From an uncultured Alphaproteobacteria bacterium (GTDB taxonomy: Bacteria > Pseudomonadota > Alphaproteobacteria > Rhizobiales > Aestuariivirgaceae): a DNA stretch of 64,000 nt. This document shows positions 1 to 10,062 of this stretch, one piece after another. The stretch lies in the NCBI GenBank assembly GCA_963787895.1, contig CAWBEX010000008.1, positions 540,390-604,389 on the forward strand. Direction: 5' to 3'. A program made the translations under genes and the position numbers. Under the pieces are notes generated by a model. That model was not told where the DNA came from. It saw nothing but the letters and a program-made list of their open reading frames with translations, and ran no database searches. The first letter of the stretch is position 1. Each line of letters opens with the position of its first letter.

Positions 1-810
1 CGGCTTCAGACCCGTACCTGGTGCTCTCCAGTTCGGCGATGCGCTGCAACCGCATCACCGTAGACGAAGTGCGGAATGATGCCGAAGCCCTGCTTGTTGG
101 ACATCCAGATGATCGGCACCAGGTAGGCGATGATCAGCACGATGTACTGGGCCACCTGGGTCCAGGTCACGCCGCGCATGCCGCCCAGCATCGAGCAGAG
201 CAGGATGCCGAGCAGGCCGAACCAGACGCCAACCTCGAACGGAATGCCGAGCGCCCGCGACAGCGATGGTGCCGGTCGCGTTGATCTGCGCCGTCACGTA
301 GGTGAACGAGGCCACCACCAGAACGATCACAGCGCAAGAAGCGGGCAGGTTGCCGCCATAGCGCGTGCCGATGAAGTCCGGCACCGTGTAGCAGCCGAAC
401 TTGCGCAGGTACGGCGCCATCAGCGAGTTGACCAGCACGTAGCCGCCGGTCCAGCCGACGACGAAGCCGAGATACGGATAACCGCCGAAGTAGATGCCGC
501 CGGCCAGCGCCACGAACGATGCACCGGACATCCAGTCGGCCGCCGTCGCCATGCCGTTGTAGAGGGCCGGCACCTCGCGGCCCGCCACGTAGTAGGCATC
601 GACCTGCGTGGTGCGCGACAGCCAGCCGATGAGCGCATAAATCGCGATGGTGAACATCAGGAAGCCGATGCCGATGGCCCTGGCGCCCATGCCCATCGAC
701 TCGAGGATTGCCATGAATGCGAAGAACAGCAGGAAACCACCAGTGTACATCGCGTAGATCTTGCCAAGATTATCGATAAAATTGGCAGATTTCTTTGTTT
801 CAGTAACCAT
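1..810 (-). pseudogene. Sodium:solute symporter (ActP-like/VC_2705-type), 5' part only, runs off the window; two apparent +1 frameshifts (near 262 and near 45)
   Basis: SSS motifs YYVAGR..PALYNGMATAADWMSGASF and LRKFGCYTVPDFIGTRY are in ORF 55..810. The frame continues in ORF 6..191 (MLGGMRGVTWTQVAQY). Removing one base near 262 restores ..TIASRALGIPFEVGVW.., and one near 45 restores ..VARIAELE... May be sequence error rather than true decay. Confidence 0.8.
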
Positions 811-824
811 TTACTTGCCCCTTG

Positions 825-1085
825 TTATTCGCCAACGCCGAATTCGTCGTCGATCGCGTCCTGGCGCCAGTTCTGCGCCCAGATCAGCACGACGAAGGCG
901 ATGAGCGAGCCCTGGACGCACATGTAGTAGCCCAGCGGGAAGCCGAGGAACGACATGGAATTCAAGCTAGAAGCCATGTACGGCAGAATGATCCCGAAGA
1001 GCACCCACAATGCCAGCACCACATAGGTGAGGTTGCGGGTTTTTTCCCAATGTCGTTGTCTGGATTGTGAAGATGCTTCAGACAT
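825..1085 (-). CDS. DUF4212-type small membrane subunit of the solute:sodium symporter
   Basis: C-terminal 86 aa of ORF 825..2426 (MSEASSQSRQRHWEKTRNLT..FLGFPLGYYMCVQGSLIAFVVLI). Strong GAGGAGGAG RBS before the ATG at 1085, directly upstream of the SSS gene. Confidence 0.85.
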   Translation of the reverse strand: MSEASSQSRQRHWEKTRNLTYVVLALWVLFGIILPYMASSLNSMSFLGFPLGYYMCVQGSLIAFVVLIWAQNWRQDAIDDEFGVGE

Positions 1086-1302
1086 GTTTATCTCCTCCTC
1101 AGAACGTGCAAAGATTGGCACGCACTCCTTTAACTTGCCCTTTTTTGGAGCGTCTGCGCAATTTAAACTTAAGAATGACCCCCATTCAGCCGCTGCTGAG
1201 GTTGGCGATACCCGATGGCAGGGCTCACAAAAAGCCACGGTTTGGGCGGGAAGGGCCAGTTTGCTGGGTGATTTGATCAATAAGGCGATATCCACAGGAA
1301 AC

Positions 1303-1929
1303 ATGGTGGTGTCCGCGCTGTCGTTCCGGCGCCGCGGCGGGCCAATCGATTCGCTGGCCAAGCTTGAGCAGTTCGCTGCATCGCGGGCGGCGTTCGTGAC
1401 GCAGAAGAAGCTGTACGGGTATCTGAAGACCAGAATGGGAACTTCGTGGCCAAAGGTGTTTGGAGACGCGCAGTTCAAGAAGTCGATCAACATAGCGGCA
1501 GCACAGATATTCGCTGCGAGCCTGTCCGACATTACCATCCATACCGTTGCGGTCGCGTTTTCGGGATCCGCCGTCCCCGACGCTTCCAGGAGTGCCCTTG
1601 CCCGGCAGATATACAACCATGGCCTTGCCGAGAACGAGGCCGTTACATCGGCCCACGGCCTCGACCATGAAGCGGCCCGTGCTGAGTTTGCCCGGCGGCT
1701 GGAAGGAACTGACTGGAATCTAGGTGCGATGTTGCCGGGCAACTTCAACCGAAGCCCCGCAGCACTTCTCAAGTGGGCGCCGATTGCCGACGGGCTCAAG
1801 CAATATGACGGAGAAATCGTCGAGAACTCGATGAAGTTTGCCTGGATCGAGTTGCGCGAGGATTTTGCCCGCCGGGTTGACGGACCTGCATTGGTCCGGG
1901 AATTGTCTGGTGAGGCTGCCGCCGCTTGA
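1303..1929 (+). CDS. Conserved hypothetical protein (208 aa)
   Basis: ATG at 1303 preceded by ACAGGAAAC, within ORF 1027..1929. Coding-like sequence (AAFVTQKKLYGYLKTRMGT..WAPIADGLKQYDGEIVENS), co-oriented with the next gene. Confidence 0.7.
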   Translation: MVVSALSFRRRGGPIDSLAKLEQFAASRAAFVTQKKLYGYLKTRMGTSWPKVFGDAQFKKSINIAAAQIFAASLSDITIHTVAVAFSGSAVPDASRSALARQIYNHGLAENEAVTSAHGLDHEAARAEFARRLEGTDWNLGAMLPGNFNRSPAALLKWAPIADGLKQYDGEIVENSMKFAWIELREDFARRVDGPALVRELSGEAAAA

Positions 1930-2009
1930 TTTTTCGCAAGGCGCCGTGGCCCGGTTGGCGCTAGAAACGTTGCCCAGCAGTTCCGTGCTTCAGGAGGGCG
2001 CCGGCCAAA

Positions 2010-4142
2010 ATGTCTTTCACCGTGCAAAGGACCGGGCTGTCGGGTCTGCCATTGGCCATGGTGCCGGTCGTCGTGATGGATACAGAGACCACGGGCCTCA
2101 GGGTTTCCGAGGACAGGGTCATCGAGATTGGCGCGATCCGCGTCACCGATGGCGAAGCCCGGCGCGAGGAGGACTTCTCGCGGCTGATCAATCCGCAGGT
2201 GCCGATCGCGACAGCGTCCACCGCCATCCATGCCATCACTGATGCCGATGTCGCCGATGCCGAGCCGTTCAGACCAGTGATGGAGGCCTTCTCCCGATGG
2301 TGCGGCAACAAGGTTGTGCTGGGCTACTCGACTGGTTTCGACTTGGGTATCCTGAAGGCCGAGCATGACCGCCACGGCATGAAATGGAATGCGCCGCGCA
2401 GTCTCGACGTGCGCCATCTTGTGCAACTGCTGGCGCCGGAATTACCCGACCAGTCGCTCGACATGGCGGCCGGCTGGCTGGGCGTCAAGTTCGGTGAACG
2501 CCACCGGGCATTGGCAGATGCCGAACTGACCTTGCATGTGTTCCAGCGGCTGATCCCCAGGCTGAAGCAGAAGGGTATCGTGACCCTGTCGCAAGCCGAG
2601 AGGGCCTGCCTGTCACTCGGCTCGCGGCTGACGACGGAAACCCAGGCGGGCTGGCACGACGTGGTGCGGACTGACCGCACCAGGCCGGCAGCGGTCAGCG
2701 AGTACATGCGCATCGACAGCTATCCCTACCGCCACCGGGTGTACGACGTGATGCATACCTCGCCGTTGTTGATGGACCCTGATGCTCAGGTCAAGATGGC
2801 CCTTGCCGAGATGATGGAGAAGCAGATCAGTTCGGTATTCGTCAACCCGCTTGAGGCCGGCGGACCACACGGTATCCTGACCGAGAGGGACGTGCTGCGC
2901 GGCATCAATGCAAGCGGCGCTGCGGTCCTGTCGAAGCCGGTCCGCTCACTGACCAGGTTTCCGCTGGTGGCGATCAACCAGGACGAGTTCGTCTACCGCG
3001 CCGTGACAACCATGGCTGTAGGCGGGTTCCGCCATCTCGGCGTTGTCGATGATGCCGGCAATCTGACCGGTGCGCTGAGTGCGCGCGACCTGCTGAAACA
3101 GCGGGCGGGTGGCGCGGTGCTGCTGGACAACAGCATAGATCAGGCGCGCACCCCAGCCGAGCTTGGCAAGGTGTGGGCGGGGCTCACGACCGTGGTGCGA
3201 GGGCTGGTTACGGAAGAGGTCGACTCGCGCGATATTGCATCGGTGGTATCTCGTGAACTGAGGGCTTTGACCGCGCGGGCATGCGCGCTCGCCGAGGAGC
3301 AGATGAAGGCCGCGGGCAAAGGCAAACCGCCGCAACGCTACGCGATGTTCGTGATCGGCTCCGGCGGGCGCGGCGAAAGCTTGCTGGCGATGGACCAGGA
3401 CAATGCCATCATCTATGAGCAGGGAGACGAAGATGACCCTGTAGATGCATGGTTCGCGCAACTTGGCCAGATCGTGGCCGATACGCTCAACGATGCCGGT
3501 GTGGCCTATTGCAAGGGCAACATCATGGCGTCGCATCCGGCGTGGCGAAAGGATGCGGCTCGGTGGCGGGCTACCGTATCGGAGTGGCTCACCAAGTCCC
3601 GGCCCGATGACATTCTGGATTCCGACATCTTCTTCGACGCGGTCGGTGTGCATGGCCACCAGCCGCTGGTGGACGGGCTGGTTCAGGACGCCATTGCTGC
3701 TGCGAGCGAGGCGAAAGACTTCCTGCGCGCCATGGGTTTGCGGGCCGGACATTTTGAGTCACCAGTGGGATGGTTGGGACGCTTCAAGCTCGACGATGGG
3801 CGGATCGACCTCAAAAAGTGCGGACTGCTGCCGCTGTTCTCGTGCGCACGGGTGCTGGCGCTGCGCCACGGCCTGACTGTCCGGTCGACGCCGAGGCGGC
3901 TGGCTGTGGCACGTGAAATGAACGTCGAAGGCGCACACGTCATCGAAGACCTGCTAGAAGCGCACCGGGTAATTATGGATGCGATCCTGCGTCAGCAATT
4001 GCGGGATATCGAGGCCGGGCTGAAGCTAGGCAACAAGGTGGATCCGATGCAGCTGGACAGCTTGCATCTCCAGCAATTGCGCTGGGCAGTCGATCAGGTG
4101 CCAAGGATACGCGATCTGCTGGGACTGCCAACCTTCGGCTGA
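2010..4142 (+). CDS. DEDDh 3'-5' exonuclease - CBS pair - DUF294 (GlnD/GlnE-like) nucleotidyltransferase fusion
   Basis: ExoI VMDTETTG, ExoII GFDLGIL, ExoIII HRALADA; CBS motifs GILTERDVLR and GALSARDLL; nucleotidyltransferase motif GSGGRGESLLAMDQDNA; C-terminal IDLKKCGLLPL typical of DUF294_C. Confidence 0.85.
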   Translation: MSFTVQRTGLSGLPLAMVPVVVMDTETTGLRVSEDRVIEIGAIRVTDGEARREEDFSRLINPQVPIATASTAIHAITDADVADAEPFRPVMEAFSRWCGNKVVLGYSTGFDLGILKAEHDRHGMKWNAPRSLDVRHLVQLLAPELPDQSLDMAAGWLGVKFGERHRALADAELTLHVFQRLIPRLKQKGIVTLSQAERACLSLGSRLTTETQAGWHDVVRTDRTRPAAVSEYMRIDSYPYRHRVYDVMHTSPLLMDPDAQVKMALAEMMEKQISSVFVNPLEAGGPHGILTERDVLRGINASGAAVLSKPVRSLTRFPLVAINQDEFVYRAVTTMAVGGFRHLGVVDDAGNLTGALSARDLLKQRAGGAVLLDNSIDQARTPAELGKVWAGLTTVVRGLVTEEVDSRDIASVVSRELRALTARACALAEEQMKAAGKGKPPQRYAMFVIGSGGRGESLLAMDQDNAIIYEQGDEDDPVDAWFAQLGQIVADTLNDAGVAYCKGNIMASHPAWRKDAARWRATVSEWLTKSRPDDILDSDIFFDAVGVHGHQPLVDGLVQDAIAAASEAKDFLRAMGLRAGHFESPVGWLGRFKLDDGRIDLKKCGLLPLFSCARVLALRHGLTVRSTPRRLAVAREMNVEGAHVIEDLLEAHRVIMDAILRQQLRDIEAGLKLGNKVDPMQLDSLHLQQLRWAVDQVPRIRDLLGLPTFG

Positions 4143-4530
4143 CAGTTCTCGTCTCCCTGCCCTGGATCCAGAGAACACGATTGTCCACAATGTCACGTGG
4201 TGCGGAGCTGGCACTTCTACTTGCGGGCATTGGAGTATTTGTAGCGGTCAGTCACGTTTGGCCTCGTGGCCATCGGTTGCATAGTATCGCCCCTCTCTAA
4301 GCCACCGGCGTTGCCCTACTGCAGAAATGTGCTGACACTCGGTTCCGTAAACCACCAAGCCAAACTTGCGATAGGCCTCAGTCCATAGATCTTTGTCTTC
4401 GCGCCTTTGGCAAAGCCGCATGTGACTCTCATATGGTTTATATTCGCCTTAGAGATCAGGCATATTCTGTCTGGAGCCGAATATGCTCTTCACAAGCTGG
4501 CAAGTTTCCTTCTTGCACATGACAAATCGC

Positions 4531-4920
4531 AATCTGCTGATGGGCCAAACCAAATTCTCTTCTGAACACGAAAGCCGGCACATTATCCAACGGCACCCGC
4601 AAGGCGGCATTGCCGCGTCACGCTGTGACCTGGTGCTTCACGAATACATGCGCAAGTAGCACAATCGCAGGCAAGTAACGGGTAACGCGCCATCAACTTC
4701 CTCCCTCAACTCAATGATGCACTGGCTGTTCAACCGGCTGGAAAGCTTGGCTTCTAATTATGTTGCTGAGCACCGGGCCAAGTGACGCAAGCCCTACCGG
4801 CATCAGCATCATGTGGTCAGCGAAAGCCATAAGATGTTTTGACCCAACACGGTCATGTGCCGCACTGCGCCGATCAGCACAAAGGGCGGATTCCTGACCT
4901 TCACCGCTCTGCAGCGAAAT
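4531..4920 (+). repeat. Degenerate copies of the island palindrome family (cluster 1)
   Basis: 4531-4556 aatctgc-tgatgggccaaa-ccaaatt (weak). 4860-4868 ccgcactgc is identical to 11901-11909. 4881-4915 aaagggcggatt-cctgacctt-caccgctctgcagc aligns with 9997-10031 tttgggcgggaa-gcggacatt-cgctgcactgcagc. Confidence 0.5.
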
Positions 4921-5093
4921 GTAAAAGGCTTCTGCCTGCCTGATGTACGGACCAATGATCCAGACATGCTGCGACATAAAATACCGCCAACACTGATCTG
5001 CATTAGTGCCCGCACTGAAATATCGTTGCATGGTGTTTCATGCATTGTCTTAGCGCCAGTCGGCGTAGAGATGCACGAAACAGGAGACGACAA

Positions 5094-6315: not shown

Positions 6316-6636
6316 CTATGCGCCGAGGGTCCTGGATCTTCTGCGCCATTCTCTTTTCTCCTCAGGTAGCTGTCCCCTGACATCCACATGCACCGCTTCT
6401 GCCAATTGATCTACTGTCTTGCTCGAAATCCGGATTTCCAGAAGCCGACCGTCATCTGTTCGCGGTTGTAGATCAGCGAGATCAAATATTGCACCTAGTA
6501 TGCTGGCGGACGAGCGGATTTCACCGTTGCAGGTTACTCCGGCATGTTGCGTGAGGTATCCATCAAAATCATAGTAGGCCCCTGGCAATATCCTTGCCAT
6601 GTTGTACAAGCGTACCCTCACCAGATATTCCACCAA
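6316..6636 (-). CDS. Hypothetical protein
   Basis: 106-aa ORF filling the gap between neighbouring genes, co-oriented with the two genes upstream; start uncertain, no family recognised. Confidence 0.4.
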   Translation of the reverse strand: MVEYLVRVRLYNMARILPGAYYDFDGYLTQHAGVTCNGEIRSSASILGAIFDLADLQPRTDDGRLLEIRISSKTVDQLAEAVHVDVRGQLPEEKREWRRRSRTLGA

Positions 6637-6645
6637 GGTATTCCG

Positions 6646-6942
6646 TCATTTCACACTATTCCTTCCAGCTTTGCCTGATGCACTCCGCTCAGCGTCTGCT
6701 CTGATTGCTGCGCCCAGTTCGTCACTGTCCACCGGAAACACCTGGGTCTTGCCTGTGCCGGCCGACAGTGCAGGGACGTGAAGCATGGTTGACGAGCGCC
6801 GATATGCCACAAAAGACAGCCCGGGGATTTCATCGTCCACAACTACAAGTCGATAGGTACCAGCTGGCTGTGGTCCATCCATCGGTGACAGATTGAACTG
6901 GTGCTGGAAAGTGACAGTGCTTTCGTTGGTACGCGAAGTCAT
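6646..6942 (-). CDS. Conserved alphaproteobacterial hypothetical protein
   Basis: MTSRTNESTVTFQHQFNLSPMDGPQPAGTYRLVVVDDEIPGLSFVAYRR pattern, which I recognise from small proteins found near Crp/Fnr genes; ATG at 6942. Confidence 0.7.
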   Translation of the reverse strand: MTSRTNESTVTFQHQFNLSPMDGPQPAGTYRLVVVDDEIPGLSFVAYRRSSTMLHVPALSAGTGKTQVFPVDSDELGAAIRADAERSASGKAGRNSVK

Positions 6943-7016
6943 GCCTTCTGTCTCACTGCCTCTTGCTTCCACCCCCCGACAGACACCATGCCTGTGGAAA
7001 GTGTAGGCTGCTTCAA

Positions 7017-7253
7017 CTAGTTGCGGCGCACGGAATTTCCGCCATTCACTATCCCGTTGATCAATACTGATACTACCTTATGCAAATCTGCTTTTTCGCT
7101 CCCGGCAGGTATGTTTTCGTGGGCAGCAGCGGCGTCTTTCAGAACACCAAGAATCTCGTGCTCTGGAAGAATCTTTCGGTCGTTCAATGCCAACAGAAGA
7201 GACTCCAGAATTGACAGCGCAATGATACCTGAAAAATCTCTTGGCTCTGACAT
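7017..7253 (-). CDS. Conserved small hypothetical protein, divergent from the Crp/Fnr regulator
   Basis: ALSILESLLLALNDRKILPEHEILGVLKDAAAAHEN..LINGIVNGGNSVRR, a pattern I recognise as a recurrent Crp/Fnr neighbour. Confidence 0.7.
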   Translation of the reverse strand: MSEPRDFSGIIALSILESLLLALNDRKILPEHEILGVLKDAAAAHENIPAGSEKADLHKVVSVLINGIVNGGNSVRRN

Positions 7254-7322
7254 ATGCGGTAGCCCCGGCTTTCATATTCGGTCTGTTGTTAAAGACTAAC
7301 GAGGTTTCATAGTTTCACATTC

Positions 7323-7336
7323 TTGATTGATATGAA
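7323..7336. promoter_or_regulatory. FNR/FixK-box-like site
   Basis: TTGAT-TGAT-ATGAA, one mismatch to TTGAT-N4-ATCAA, in the divergent intergenic region. Confidence 0.4.
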
Positions 7337-7375
7337 CTGATCCAAAGCAGTTTCCCTGCCGTTTTTCTGATAAGG

Positions 7376-8158
7376 TTGTGTTTCGCTGGAATGGTTATTC
7401 GGCCCACCTTAACCGCAGAGGTTCCATTAATTGTGAGACAAGACAGCCCCCTTGCCCGAAAGCTGGGAACCTACGTGGTATTGTCCGAGGAAGAATTGCT
7501 TGTGCTCAGCAAACTTCATCAGCGGCGGCGAACACTCAAGGCCGGGCAGACTCTATTTCACCAGGGTGACCTAACACAATCCGCCTACATCCTGGCGAGT
7601 GGCTGGGCGTGTTCATACAAACTCATGCGTGATGGAACACGTCAGATTGTAGATTTTCAAATACCGGGGGATTTTTTGGGTTTGCGCAGCATTCTGTTCC
7701 GCACGGCAGACCATAATATCGATGCGGTCACGCCAATCGAGGTTTCCGAAGTTTCGATGCATGAAATGATCGACTCGTTTACCAGAACGCCGCGACTGGC
7801 TACTGCTATTCTTTGGGCTGCTTCGCGAGATGAAGCGATGGTGGTGGAGCACCTGGTCAATCTGGGATGCCGGGACGCTTTCGAGCGGACAGCACACTTC
7901 TTGCTGGAACTCGGATCAAGGATGATCCTTGCGGGGCTTGGTACAACGAAAGGCTATCCCTGCCCGCTGTCCCAATATCTCCTCGCTGACGTCCTGGGGC
8001 TGAGTGCGGTCCATGTCAACCGGGTGCTGCGCCAACTGCGGGAAGACCGTCTGCTGACATTTCAGAAAGGCAATGTGACATTCGAGGATCTTGACCGACT
8101 GGTGGACTTGGCCGAATTTGATAAATCCTACCTCGATGATGGTCCGCTGCTCAGATAA
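7376..8158 (+). CDS. Crp/Fnr family transcriptional regulator (start may be GTG at 7433)
   Basis: cNMP-binding fold (GWACSYKLMRDGTRQIVDFQIPGDFLG) and C-terminal HTH (LSQYLLADVLGLSAVHVNRVLRQLR). No N-terminal FNR cysteine cluster, so FixK-like. Confidence 0.9.
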   Translation: MCFAGMVIRPTLTAEVPLIVRQDSPLARKLGTYVVLSEEELLVLSKLHQRRRTLKAGQTLFHQGDLTQSAYILASGWACSYKLMRDGTRQIVDFQIPGDFLGLRSILFRTADHNIDAVTPIEVSEVSMHEMIDSFTRTPRLATAILWAASRDEAMVVEHLVNLGCRDAFERTAHFLLELGSRMILAGLGTTKGYPCPLSQYLLADVLGLSAVHVNRVLRQLREDRLLTFQKGNVTFEDLDRLVDLAEFDKSYLDDGPLLR

Positions 8159-8296
8159 ATGGCAGAGCAAGCGTTAGCCTGGTCAGATTGTTTGCGTGGA
8201 GCAAGATGGATCTCTAGAAGCCATAAAGTTGCTCTAACACTCTGGAAACGAACAGGTTAGTGATTTTTTGGTTAAATCAACCATTCTGATCTAGTG

Positions 8297-8323
8297 CCAC
8301 CCCGGCAAGAATTGCCGGAGTGG
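8297..8323. terminator. Stem-loop between convergent Crp/Fnr and small-protein genes
   Basis: ccaccccggcaa / ttgccggagtgg inverted repeat with one mismatch and a 3-nt loop. Confidence 0.55.
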
Positions 8324-8345
8324 AGTCTGCTTTCGTGCCGCCGGA

Positions 8346-8540
8346 TCAGTTCAGCGCAAGCTTTGCCGCGTCCAGTTCCTTGATGCATTCAGCTTCATTC
8401 TTTGCTGTGTGGGCCTTCTCGGCAGCCTGGTAATGCTTCAAGGATGCGTCCTTCTTTGGACCGGTAGGCGCCTTGTCCCATGCGGACTTGACGGTCTTCA
8501 TCTTCTCGGATGCAGCGGACATATTGGTTGATTCAGACAT
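8346..8540 (-). CDS. Small conserved hypothetical protein (64 aa)
   Basis: KMKTVKSAWDKAPTGPKKDASLKHYQAAEKAH; AAGGAA RBS upstream; pattern recognised from small alphaproteobacterial proteins. Confidence 0.7.
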   Translation of the reverse strand: MSESTNMSAASEKMKTVKSAWDKAPTGPKKDASLKHYQAAEKAHTAKNEAECIKELDAAKLALN

Positions 8541-8806
8541 GTCGGTATTCCTTTGTTAGCGCCTGTGTAGAAGTACGCCCAAAGTCTGCACTAGCAGCGC
8601 GAGGGGTGAAACGCTGTGTGGTCTGGGTTCGACTGATTTCAGAGGTCGCTGTGTGTGGGGCCGATAATTCGGCGCCAATCGTGGGACCGTAGCCAACTAT
8701 CGAGACGGGCATACTGATGCAAATCAGTTTCCTCGATCATTGTTTCCTAAATCTTACATCATGGCTGTTGATGGCACATTTTAGACTCTTCCGATGAGCT
8801 GCAGAT

Positions 8807-9073
8807 AGGGTTTGCTTTCGGGGTCGGAGCGGACATTCTCTTGAGCCATGCTGAATGAGAGCATTTGGGCCGGAAGTGACAGTGGTCACCTTGGGCGGAA
8901 AGCGGTCGAATTCGCAGCGATTGCACAGCGGTTATGTCAATTTGTGAATAGCGGACTTTCATCCGACGGAGATTTTTTCCGTAATGCTCCGTCGCCGCAT
9001 GACCGCTCCGAGCCCAATGGTGGACGTCCGCAAGCGATACCAAAATGCAGCATTGTGCCAATAACAGGTCATT
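8807..9073 (+). repeat. Cluster of about six degenerate palindromic units (cluster 2)
   Basis: 8807-8837 agggtttgc-tttcggggtcgga-gcggacatt; 8854-8883 aatgagagc-atttgggccggaa-gtgacagt; 8884-8907 ggtcacc-ttgggcggaaa-gcggtc; 8935-8958 tgtcaa-tttgtgaata-gcggactt; 8999-9027 atgaccgc-tccgagcccaatg-gtggacgt; 9044-9073 aatgcagc-attgtgccaata-acaggtcatt. Confidence 0.65.
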
Positions 9074-9145
9074 TTTCTACTAGTTCGGTTTGACTCTGCG
9101 TAGTCAGACCGCTTATGAGGAAAAGGATGATAGCGAGGCATTGCT

Positions 9146-9802
9146 GTGCATTTGTTGAAATCATTACCTGTAGTTTCAGCTTCACTTGTTGCAGCATGCA
9201 TTTCTTTTGATCTTGCGTTGGCTGGAGAAAGCAACCCGCTTGGCAACTCGCCCATTGCAGATACCCCCGGAAGCATAAGCATTCTAGGAGGCGTGACTGT
9301 CGGTAACAACACTTTGGGTAGTGTGCTTTTTCCGATAGACTTAAGTGAAAAAGGACTGGGCGAAGGCGGCTTTGTAGGCGCGGCCATGTCGCGTCAACTG
9401 GTTCGGTTCCAGAGACACTTTTGGCTTGAGGCAGAATTGGGTGGAGGCTTCCGCTTCGAGCCCGCCGTAGATTACTATAATCCGGAAGCTTGGGGAGCAA
9501 TCTATCTCAAATATGATGGTTTTCCCTGGAATGATGTAATTCGAACTACAGTCGGTGTATCTACGGGGCTTCATTGGATCGCAGAGCTGACACCAGGTGA
9601 TACAAACTATGGCCAATACGCCATTCCTGGGAATGCTGTACTGCAACATTATTTTTCCCCAGAAATTGCGTTTTCTTTTCCGGAACGCCCCCAGGACGAG
9701 TTGTTTATTCGCATCCATCATCGCTCGACTGGGTACGGACTATTTTGGAATACTGAGGCTGGGTCAAATGTCGTGGCAATTGGACTGCGGTTCAGAAGAT
9801 AG
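9146..9802 (+). CDS. Outer-membrane beta-barrel protein, PagL/acyloxyacyl-hydrolase-like
   Basis: Signal peptide (..FDLALA), alternating amphipathic strands, C-terminal LFIRIHHRSTGYGLF..GSNVVAIGLRF with an H-x-S motif and a near-terminal Phe; AT-rich codons. Confidence 0.65.
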   Translation: MHLLKSLPVVSASLVAACISFDLALAGESNPLGNSPIADTPGSISILGGVTVGNNTLGSVLFPIDLSEKGLGEGGFVGAAMSRQLVRFQRHFWLEAELGGGFRFEPAVDYYNPEAWGAIYLKYDGFPWNDVIRTTVGVSTGLHWIAELTPGDTNYGQYAIPGNAVLQHYFSPEIAFSFPERPQDELFIRIHHRSTGYGLFWNTEAGSNVVAIGLRFRR

Positions 9803-9811
9803 CAACACCCC

Positions 9812-10062
9812 ACGTCTGCCGCAGGTCCATTAGCTGACATCTGTGCAAAGAAATACAACGGCAGCTTCGTCCGCGTTGCGGTCGTCCACAATGCCTTGCA
9901 CTTCGCTCCTGCAGCGAATGTCCGGAATGATTGGCGCACCGCCGCGTCGGGAGTGACGGCCTAAGGTCGGCTTTGGGCCGTTAGCGCCTCTGTCAATTTG
10001 GGCGGGAAGCGGACATTCGCTGCACTGCAGCTGAGTCAGCTGCCTTGAGCGCGAAGCGAACT
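9812..10062 (+). repeat. Cluster of five to six degenerate palindromic units (cluster 3)
   Basis: 9812-9840 acgtctgc-cgcaggtccatta-gctgacat (9 nt after the OMP stop); 9857-9885 aacggcagc-ttcgtccgcgtt-gcggtcgt; 9963-9991 aaggtcggc-tttgggccgtta-gcgcctct; 9991-10017 tgtcaa-tttgggcgggaa-gcggacatt; ~10038-10062 agctgc-cttgagcgcgaa-gcgaact. Also a perfect 14-bp inverted pair, tgcagcgaatgtcc (9910-9923) / ggacattcgctgca (10011-10024). Confidence 0.75.

Follow-up and report, generated by a model that had tools for sequence, protein, structure and literature searches.

We analyzed a 64,000-nucleotide stretch of DNA (the window; contig CAWBEX010000008.1, positions 540,390 to 604,389) from an uncultured alphaproteobacterium of the Aestuariivirgaceae that encodes, in an open reading frame (ORF) on the plus strand, a protein of 710 amino acids (aa) in which a DEDDh exonuclease, a CBS pair, and a DUF294 nucleotidyltransferase are joined in one chain. 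This fusion protein is the single-chain (Rosetta-stone) version of a known, widespread pair of genes for a DUF294 protein and a DEDDh exonuclease. Because the two enzymes are fused here, and because a DEDDh gene is fused or within 5 kb in 53 of 59 sampled DUF294 loci, they are almost certainly coupled functionally and work on the same thing. The recurrent gene neighborhood, together with published genetics, very probably ties the pair to a sodium/monocarboxylate-type symporter. Our first-ranked explanation, to which we assign a probability of roughly 0.4 for the whole chain of events, is that the protein may serve as a ligand-gated switch that writes nucleotides onto a protein and erases them again.

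Domain architecture and distribution of the enzyme pair

The gene and the domains of its product are arranged as follows:

2010..4142, plus strand: entire gene of the 710-aa fusion protein, with the start set at 2010, as homologues all begin with MSF
2070..2543, plus strand: DEDDh (DnaQ/RNase_T-type) 3'-5' exonuclease domain, aa 21-178 (PF00929, E 1.4e-30)
2595..2738, plus strand: linker, aa 196-243, with low predicted local distance difference test (pLDDT) values at aa 206-241 and with invariant columns
2739..3104, plus strand: CBS pair (Bateman module), aa 244-365 (PF00571, two stretches, E 3.5e-15)
3183..3605, plus strand: DUF294 nucleotidyltransferase catalytic domain, aa 392-532 (PF03445, E 6.2e-37)
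3717..4121, plus strand: DUF294_C helical 'substrate-binding' domain, aa 570-704 (PF10335, E 1.2e-29)

All four Pfam regions score far above their cut-offs (PF00929, 107.5 bits with a cut-off of 24; PF00571, 56.5 bits; PF03445, 127 bits; PF10335, 103 bits), and NCBIfam groups the N-terminal domain with the DEDD exonucleases of the DnaQ/PolC/DinG type. This domain possesses the motifs Exo I (D-x-E), Exo II (D), and Exo III (H-x4-D), and its DEDDh pentad (D24, E26, D111, H165, and D170) is invariant in an alignment of 18 full-length homologues. Equally invariant are the transferase residues G450-S451...D462-Q463-D464 and D539/D543, which are kept in the comparison with split forms as well, and the stretch G-S-G-G-R-G-E-S...D-Q-D-N of the DUF294 domain. 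Because the pentad, the pol-beta signature, and D539/D543 are all invariant, both halves of the protein are predicted to be catalytically active. The original prediction, made from the DNA sequence, had described a complete DEDDh motif set, a CBS pair, and an intact nucleotidyltransferase motif in one polypeptide, and the Pfam matches and the invariant residues bear this description out.

The succession of PF03445 and PF10335 is the domain order of DUF294/COG2905 proteins. No PF00027 match, and hence no cyclic nucleotide (cNMP)-binding domain of the canonical COG2905 layout, was found in the fusion protein; the exonuclease occupies its N-terminus instead. In the AlphaFold2 model (pLDDT 82.4; predicted template modeling score, pTM, 0.72), aa 206-241 of the linker are predicted to be disordered (pLDDT <50), yet the linker contains the conserved residues E210, G214, and W215. 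It ends, directly ahead of the CBS pair, in the conserved motif R-x-D-S-x-P-Y-R-H, which marks an exonuclease-first clade and does not occur in the cNMP-CBS-DUF294 clade.

Our search of 5.8 billion proteins yielded more than 2,900 relatives of the fusion protein, and the 120 of them that were listed are each 695-740 aa long and possess the identical domain set. The listed full-length homologues are 53-90% identical to it and derive from Anderseniella (90%), Pelagibius, Kiloniellaceae, Rhodospirillales, and further taxa. When a single genome was scanned for each species, at least 539 loci were confirmed, so that the fusion is encoded in the genomes of at least 539 species, mainly of the Alphaproteobacteria. 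The fusion is real and no assembly artefact.

To place the domains, the whole 710-aa model was compared with known structures by Foldseek and by an all-against-all aligner (VIA, which reports Z scores). The best neighbors of aa ~365-708 are the N-terminal domain of Escherichia coli GlnE (1v4a; Z 24.9, 340 residues aligned), Legionella DrrA with Rab8a (6yx5; Z 23.6), and the C-terminal domain of GlnE (3k7d; Z 23.1), and it is DUF294 and DUF294_C together that align to GlnE and DrrA over ~300-340 residues. All three of these enzymes act on protein tyrosines, which they AMPylate or de-AMPylate. The transferase matches came from the all-against-all aligner alone; Foldseek, run with the whole model, listed only matches to the exonuclease and the CBS pair, and a sequence search of the PDB found no solved relative of DUF294. 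The exonuclease domain has the RNase H-like fold of the DNA polymerase III epsilon subunit (1j53; Z 21.6, 1.4 Å over 163 residues) and of PolC (Z 23.1), and the CBS pair resembles AMP- or S-adenosylmethionine-bound CBS pairs (VIA Z 17-18). Kinship with GlnE and GlnD is also apparent at the level of sequence profiles: against a cut-off of 21 bits for PF03445, GlnE and GlnD proteins reach 35-52 bits, they cross-match both PF03445 and PF10335, and the weak PF03445 matches in frames of 900-1000 aa in other genomes are genuine GlnE and GlnD. That the transferase belongs with these enzymes had been foreseen in the original prediction.

For the wider distribution of the pair, we searched 301 evenly drawn Pseudomonadota genomes with PF03445 and obtained a strong match in about 95 of them. 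Sixty DUF294 loci were fetched from this sample and their ORFs scored with hidden Markov models (HMMs) built from our own alignments; the gene was found in 59. A DEDDh partner is fused in five of these loci, lies within 1 kb (often abutting) in 46 and within 5 kb in two, and is missing in six; this neighborhood check thus substantiates the pairing of the two enzymes. The DUF294 proteins come in the architectures cNMP-CBS-DUF294 (616 aa), CBS-DUF294 (~500 aa), and Cache-PAS-DUF294 (853 aa), and the cNMP-binding domain is present in the split form at locus L091. The fused proteins belong to the exonuclease-first clade, which is marked by a Y-R-H-R motif and of which locus L140 represents a split version. 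Among the partner exonucleases, some of 700 aa or more carry PAS domains, so that sensor domains (cNMP, CBS, PAS, or Cache) occur on both partners in other lineages. Partner exonucleases of 470-740 aa were observed in other clades (L099:11425-13545, L135:13594-15741, and L092:4375-5865). Because the N-terminal half of these large proteins has PAS domains or is unassigned, we infer that the putative eraser carries a sensor of its own in these clades, too.

Three Cache-PAS-DUF294 genes for proteins of 853-864 aa without CBS domains (L148:7907-10468, L149:9000-11561, and L150:8991-11585) are each divergent to a gene for a DUF3360 membrane protein, and neither an exonuclease nor, as a possible other partner, a metallophosphoesterase was found near these three loci. 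DUF3360 is a second, different membrane-protein partner of the DUF294 transferase family.

Neighboring genes and the link to symporters

The genes next to the fusion gene are the following:

1..810, minus strand: start of the large-subunit gene (~270 N-terminal codons) of a VC_2705-type sodium/solute symporter (SSS) (TIGR03648, 196.9 bits, aa 49-183)
825..1085, minus strand: intact gene for DUF4212, the symporter's small subunit of 86 aa (PF13937, E 1.5e-22; TIGR03647, E 6.1e-22)
1086..1260, no strand: divergent intergenic (promoter) region between the DUF4212 gene and the gene of the '1303 protein', an arrangement kept in relatives
1261..1929, plus strand: '1303 protein', all-helical, ~222 aa; a conserved family, with the start taken from homologue N-termini

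The recurrence of this neighborhood was assessed in 80 fused-type loci fetched out of the at least 539, 53 of which have 4.5 kb or more on both sides ('full-flank'). The 1303 protein, DUF4212, and the SSS are encoded together in 44 of the 53 full-flank loci, and a ~120-aa hydrophobic protein encoded downstream of the SSS likewise recurs in 44. DUF4212 was found in 58 of the 80 loci, and the genes for the 1303 protein and DUF4212 are divergent in 51 of the 57 loci having both. The divergent arrangement persists where the cluster has the fusion gene in another place (L044, L063, L065, L067, L073, and L079), and also in genome G072, whose fusion gene is on a separate contig. The transporter unit of the alphaproteobacterial fused clade consists of four genes, those for the 1303 protein, DUF4212, the SSS, and the ~120-aa membrane protein. 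In the sample of 301 genomes, DUF4212 and an SSS accompany 27 of the 59 DUF294 genes, and another type of SSS only is present in six loci; two of these six SSS genes were checked and both match the general Pfam family SSF. ActP-like SSS genes are found next to other DUF294 forms.

Genetic data published for split homologues point to the same transporters. DUF4212 is needed for the function of its own symporter (with lactate and D-alanine as substrates), and DUF4212/SSS genes are cofit with nearby COG2905/RNase T genes, for which a role in expression was guessed (Price et al., 10.1101/072470). Loss of either pp_0353 or actP-I leads to poorer growth on pyruvate (PMC9927547), and Pflu5625, PA3232-35, and pp_0354/pp_0353 are members of the CrbS/R (MxtR/ErdR) regulon. 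A 2026 preprint describes moderate propionate and pyruvate defects and suggests protein modification (bioRxiv 10.64898/2026.09.07.749794). The link to SSS symporters that had been proposed from the sequence is upheld by the conserved gene order in the full-flank loci, by this cofitness, and by the shared pyruvate phenotypes, and the fusion cluster is indeed divergent from DUF4212 and the VC_2705-family symporter, which starts at 810 on the minus strand. The DUF294/DEDDh pair, present in about 95 of 301 genomes, is among the more widespread uncharacterised signaling modules of the Proteobacteria, co-regulated and genetically linked with the uptake of acetate, pyruvate, propionate, lactate, and D-alanine.

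The 1303 protein, named in the original prediction, is encoded by a real, conserved gene on the plus strand. Because its homologues have ~14 extra N-terminal residues, translation probably starts at the TTG at 1261, which yields 222 aa; the ATG at 1303 would give 208 aa. The family comprises 443 representative clusters at E<=1e-3, and its alignment reveals invariant residues Q48, D90, and D183 as well as, within the motif Q-x-x-L-[YF]-G-Y-[LV]-K-x-R-x-G, a near-invariant Tyr54, which the predicted model places inside a long helix. The AlphaFold2 model is all-helical and confident (pLDDT 92.6, pTM 0.87). The protein is previously undescribed and matches no Pfam family; Foldseek returned no match at E<=0.001 (E at least 0.8), the best VIA Z score was 6.2, and the ESM Atlas yielded only 'hypothetical protein' clusters. 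A relaxed HMM search detected no similarity to the unassigned N-terminal halves of the large (470-740 aa) exonucleases of other clades. DUF4212 is the neighbor of the 1303 protein throughout, in the fused-type loci and in the 301-genome sample alike. In this sample, the 1303 protein occurs in four genomes, all of which are among the six carrying the fused enzyme, a co-occurrence that is a pattern and not a statistic because related genomes are not independent. With its confident model, its lack of a known fold, and this co-occurrence, the 1303 protein is an obvious first candidate for a partner or target of the fused enzyme.

The fusion gene, the 1303 gene, and the DUF4212 gene (TIGR03647, 77.7 bits with a cut-off of 26) are intact in this genome. 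The small subunit is encoded directly upstream of the large one with a spacing of 14 nt, as in two-subunit symporters of the VC_2705 type. The gene for the large subunit extends past the start of the window, and its frame is broken near positions 258, 47, and 2. In the genome as a whole, we found no intact frame for this subunit; the SSS gene is in six pieces and three frames, whose summed TIGR03648 score is 355 bits (cut-off 320.75), and the membrane gene that follows it is in three pieces. An alignment with the DNA of three Anderseniella relatives reveals that each break in the SSS frame is an insertion of 1-2 nt. About ten insertions fall into the SSS and the ~120-aa membrane gene (C8:538916-541199 of this genome, G000), none of them in a homopolymer, and the same alignment revealed no deletion inside the coding sequence of the operon. 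This density is far above the two to three breaks per ~25 kb in other compared genes of the assembly. Because every break is an insertion and the SSS pieces keep 75-94% protein identity to relatives, the breaks are probably a consensus error of the assembly (a patch of poor consensus), and we judged a pseudogene to be less likely. Two unrelated genes (C3:60868-62473 and C3:67618-68587) are also frameshifted by single-base insertions, which suggests that the assembly contains insertion-type errors in general.

The ~120-aa protein encoded after the SSS (C8:538916-539277 of this genome and L012:6343-6705, both on the minus strand) is very hydrophobic and conserved, has no Pfam family, and likely serves this transporter subfamily as another subunit or an accessory. 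A cluster of alternative-frame ORFs for an Arg-rich protein of ~157 aa downstream of the SSS was discarded as spurious on the basis of GC3, this ~120-aa protein being the product of the real gene. The minus-strand ORF 825-2426 is spurious as well, save for its last 86 codons, which are the DUF4212 gene.

Several other features of the locus were observed. A scan for promoters and terminators found nothing above shuffled sequences and no consensus sigma-70 site in 1086..1260. The one feature seen was a weak terminator-like hairpin with a T-run (1908-1934) that overlaps the 1303 stop codon, 80 nt ahead of the fusion gene; the gap between these two genes has a median of 37 nt in relatives. Directly behind the fusion gene's stop codon, the GC content falls from ~0.63 to ~0.50 (positions 4150-4600 of the window). 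At locus L088, the fused-type gene is divergent to a gene (6370-9873, minus strand) whose product is a hybrid sensor kinase of 1167 aa with the domains PAS_7, HisKA, HATPase, and receiver; we take this kinase to resemble the CrbS/MxtR kinases, the controllers of split homologues.

A proposed switch and its alternatives

In the mechanism that we rank first, the C-terminal GlnE/GlnD/DrrA-like module would transfer a nucleoside monophosphate (NMP) from a nucleoside triphosphate onto a hydroxyl of a protein, and the CBS pair would gate this transfer by means of an adenine-nucleotide-type ligand. The N-terminal DEDDh domain would then hydrolyze the phosphodiester, thereby taking off the NMP or shortening an oligo-NMP chain, as in the oligo-AMPylation of MNT/HEPN systems, and the reversible switch would set the activity of the neighboring symporter, possibly via the 1303 protein. 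The parts of this proposal differ in their standing. We give even odds to a protein as the acceptor of the transferase, which is favored because the closest folds, those of GlnE and DrrA, modify proteins. The role of the DEDDh domain as the eraser is tentative and somewhat less likely than not; by analogy with a terminal phosphodiester, such a domain could in principle cut a Tyr-O-P-5'-nucleoside bond, or it could trim an oligo-NMP chain. Any one named target is, at best, somewhat unlikely to be the right one. Rather improbable is the most specific version, in which the DEDDh domain would be a protein de-nucleotidylase or oligo-NMP trimmer that, joined in one chain to a writer resembling GlnE/DrrA and to an energy-sensing CBS pair, controls the symporter via the 1303 protein as an adaptor or acceptor.

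The original prediction of a GlnD-analogous switch acting on the transporter or its small subunit gains from the kinship with GlnE/GlnD, the coupling of the two enzymes, and the link to the SSS. It loses on the small subunit, since a search of DUF4212 for a conserved tyrosine as a candidate acceptor found none. Further observations weigh against a protein-modifying switch. A common fold is no proof of a common substrate class, and a comparison of aa 381-710 with Pfam at E<=10 gave no match to GlnE (PF03710), GlnD_UR_UTase (PF08335), or NTP_transf; because GlnE and GlnD match PF03445 but the transferase half matches no GlnE/GlnD model, the DUF294 family is a sister of these enzymes and not a member. 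The nearest relatives of the DEDDh domain are DnaQ, PolC, DinG, and RNase T, and the characterised DEDDh enzymes all cut, to our knowledge, nucleic acids or short oligonucleotides. Moreover, about half of all sampled DUF294 loci and ~17% of the fused loci have no symporter nearby, and the remaining fused loci lie amid unrelated genes, e.g., those for GatCAB and an SDR. Finally, the literature contains genetics and regulon data only, and no biochemical activity has been reported for any member of the family. Regulation by protein nucleotidylation has already been voiced for the split homologues (PMC5715377; bioRxiv 10.64898/2026.09.07.749794); we did not find the idea of a DEDDh domain as the eraser in the literature searched.

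The exonuclease kinship just described speaks for a somewhat unlikely alternative in which the pair would write and erase RNA 3'-ends: the transferase would add untemplated nucleotides to mRNA, sRNA, or tRNA, the DEDDh domain would trim them, and the expression of the symporter operon would be controlled rather than the transporter protein. The DEDDh domain is indeed nearest to true nucleic-acid exonucleases, and the turnover of tRNA ends by the CCA-adding enzyme and RNase T offers a precedent. Henriquez et al. have also speculated that pp_0353 degrades mRNA. On the other hand, the top structural neighbors of the transferase are protein AMPylators, and no CCA-adding enzyme or poly(A) polymerase is present among the 50 listed structural matches of the whole 710-residue model. 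In addition, the Pfam search found no RNA-binding domain in the fusion protein, and an Rfam search of positions 1-5000 of the window gave no match and hence no structured RNA in the locus.

Distinctly improbable, in our view, is a second-messenger pair in which the transferase would make a linear or cyclic (oligo)nucleotide that the DEDDh domain degrades, like Orn and NrnC act on pGpG; sensors would control how the two activities are balanced, and the receptor would be either the symporter or the 1303 protein. Both enzymes are fused to sensors (cNMP, CBS, PAS, and Cache), which is the logic of GGDEF/EAL systems, and the fold matches include DEDDh enzymes with dinucleotide substrates (REXO2 with pGG, Z 14.3; the Cap18 exonuclease, Z 17.3). 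Among the structures listed, however, GlnE and DrrA are nearer to the transferase than any cyclase or oligonucleotide synthase, and the cluster has no known receptor domain.

A very improbable role is the nucleotidylation of a small molecule, by which the transported organic acid or another metabolite would be adenylylated, as aminoglycoside nucleotidyltransferases do to drugs, and the adduct hydrolyzed by the DEDDh domain. Kanamycin nucleotidyltransferase possesses the identical two-domain layout of transferase and helical domain (HEPN survey, PMC3710099) and the neighborhood is linked to monocarboxylate uptake, but the GlnE/DrrA clade is not known to carry out such chemistry, the architecture is one typically seen in signaling proteins, and no small-molecule nucleotidyltransferase is among the top structural matches listed. 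As to an artefact of an error-prone assembly, which has seven or more insertion-type frame errors in the neighboring symporter operon, or a chance juxtaposition of the genes, this explanation of the fusion and of its association with the transporter is already refuted by the same architecture in the listed homologues from independent assemblies and by the recurrence of the gene order in fused-type loci.

In the most specific version of the switch, the protein would be the first known case of a DEDDh enzyme that attacks a protein-nucleotide bond and would constitute a new post-translational control of nutrient uptake in roughly a third of the Pseudomonadota. A transferase that marks and an exonuclease that erases would represent a new class of eraser for protein AMPylation/UMPylation and a new layer over organic-acid transport.

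Comparison with known systems

GlnE and GlnD share with the fusion protein the fold of transferase and helical domain (Z 23-25), the pattern G-x-G-R-x-E...D-x-D, and, as proposed for the fusion, a bifunctional logic of addition and removal with ligand-sensing domains. They differ from it in their means of removal, which is a second transferase-like domain in GlnE and an HD domain in GlnD; the fusion has neither, and the DEDDh exonuclease stands in the partner position. They also differ in their sensors, using ACT domains or PII input where the fusion has CBS domains. Legionella DrrA/SidM (matched over 298 residues at the Z score given above) is a tyrosine-AMPylating writer with a separate eraser. 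Unlike the fusion protein, which would be a cytoplasmic signaling enzyme of the housekeeping type, it is secreted as an effector and targets Rab1 of the host; SidD, the eraser, is PP2C-like.

In MntA-HepT, an MNT/HEPN system of oligo-AMPylation, and in the turnover of tRNA ends by the CCA-adding enzyme and RNase T, a pol-beta-type transferase produces a nucleotidyl mark or chain open to shortening by a 3'-5' exonuclease, a likeness that offers the DEDDh domain a way to act by ordinary chemistry. These systems differ in that the fusion locus lacks a HEPN toxin as well as tRNA-binding body or tail domains, and neither the MntA-HepT nor the CCA-adding families are among the top structural matches listed.

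Closest to the fusion protein are the split pairs pp_0354/pp_0353 of Pseudomonas putida KT2440, PA3233/PA3232 of P. aeruginosa, and Pflu5625 of P. fluorescens, as well as those in the Sama_1525 and Psest_0349 neighborhoods. They likewise combine a DUF294 and DUF294_C transferase that has a CBS pair with a DEDDh partner, they adjoin ActP/DUF485 or DUF4212/SSS symporters, and their mutants are affected in the use of pyruvate, propionate, lactate, or D-alanine. The 1303 protein and the ~120-aa membrane protein, both encoded in the fusion cluster, were not found with the split gammaproteobacterial forms, and the motif R-x-D-S-x-P-Y-R-H ahead of the CBS pair is specific to the clade of the fusion. 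Whereas the split pairs are two proteins, the fusion is one chain with the exonuclease first and without a cNMP-binding domain; this natural Rosetta stone places the two enzymes on one pathway and provides a single polypeptide for biochemistry.

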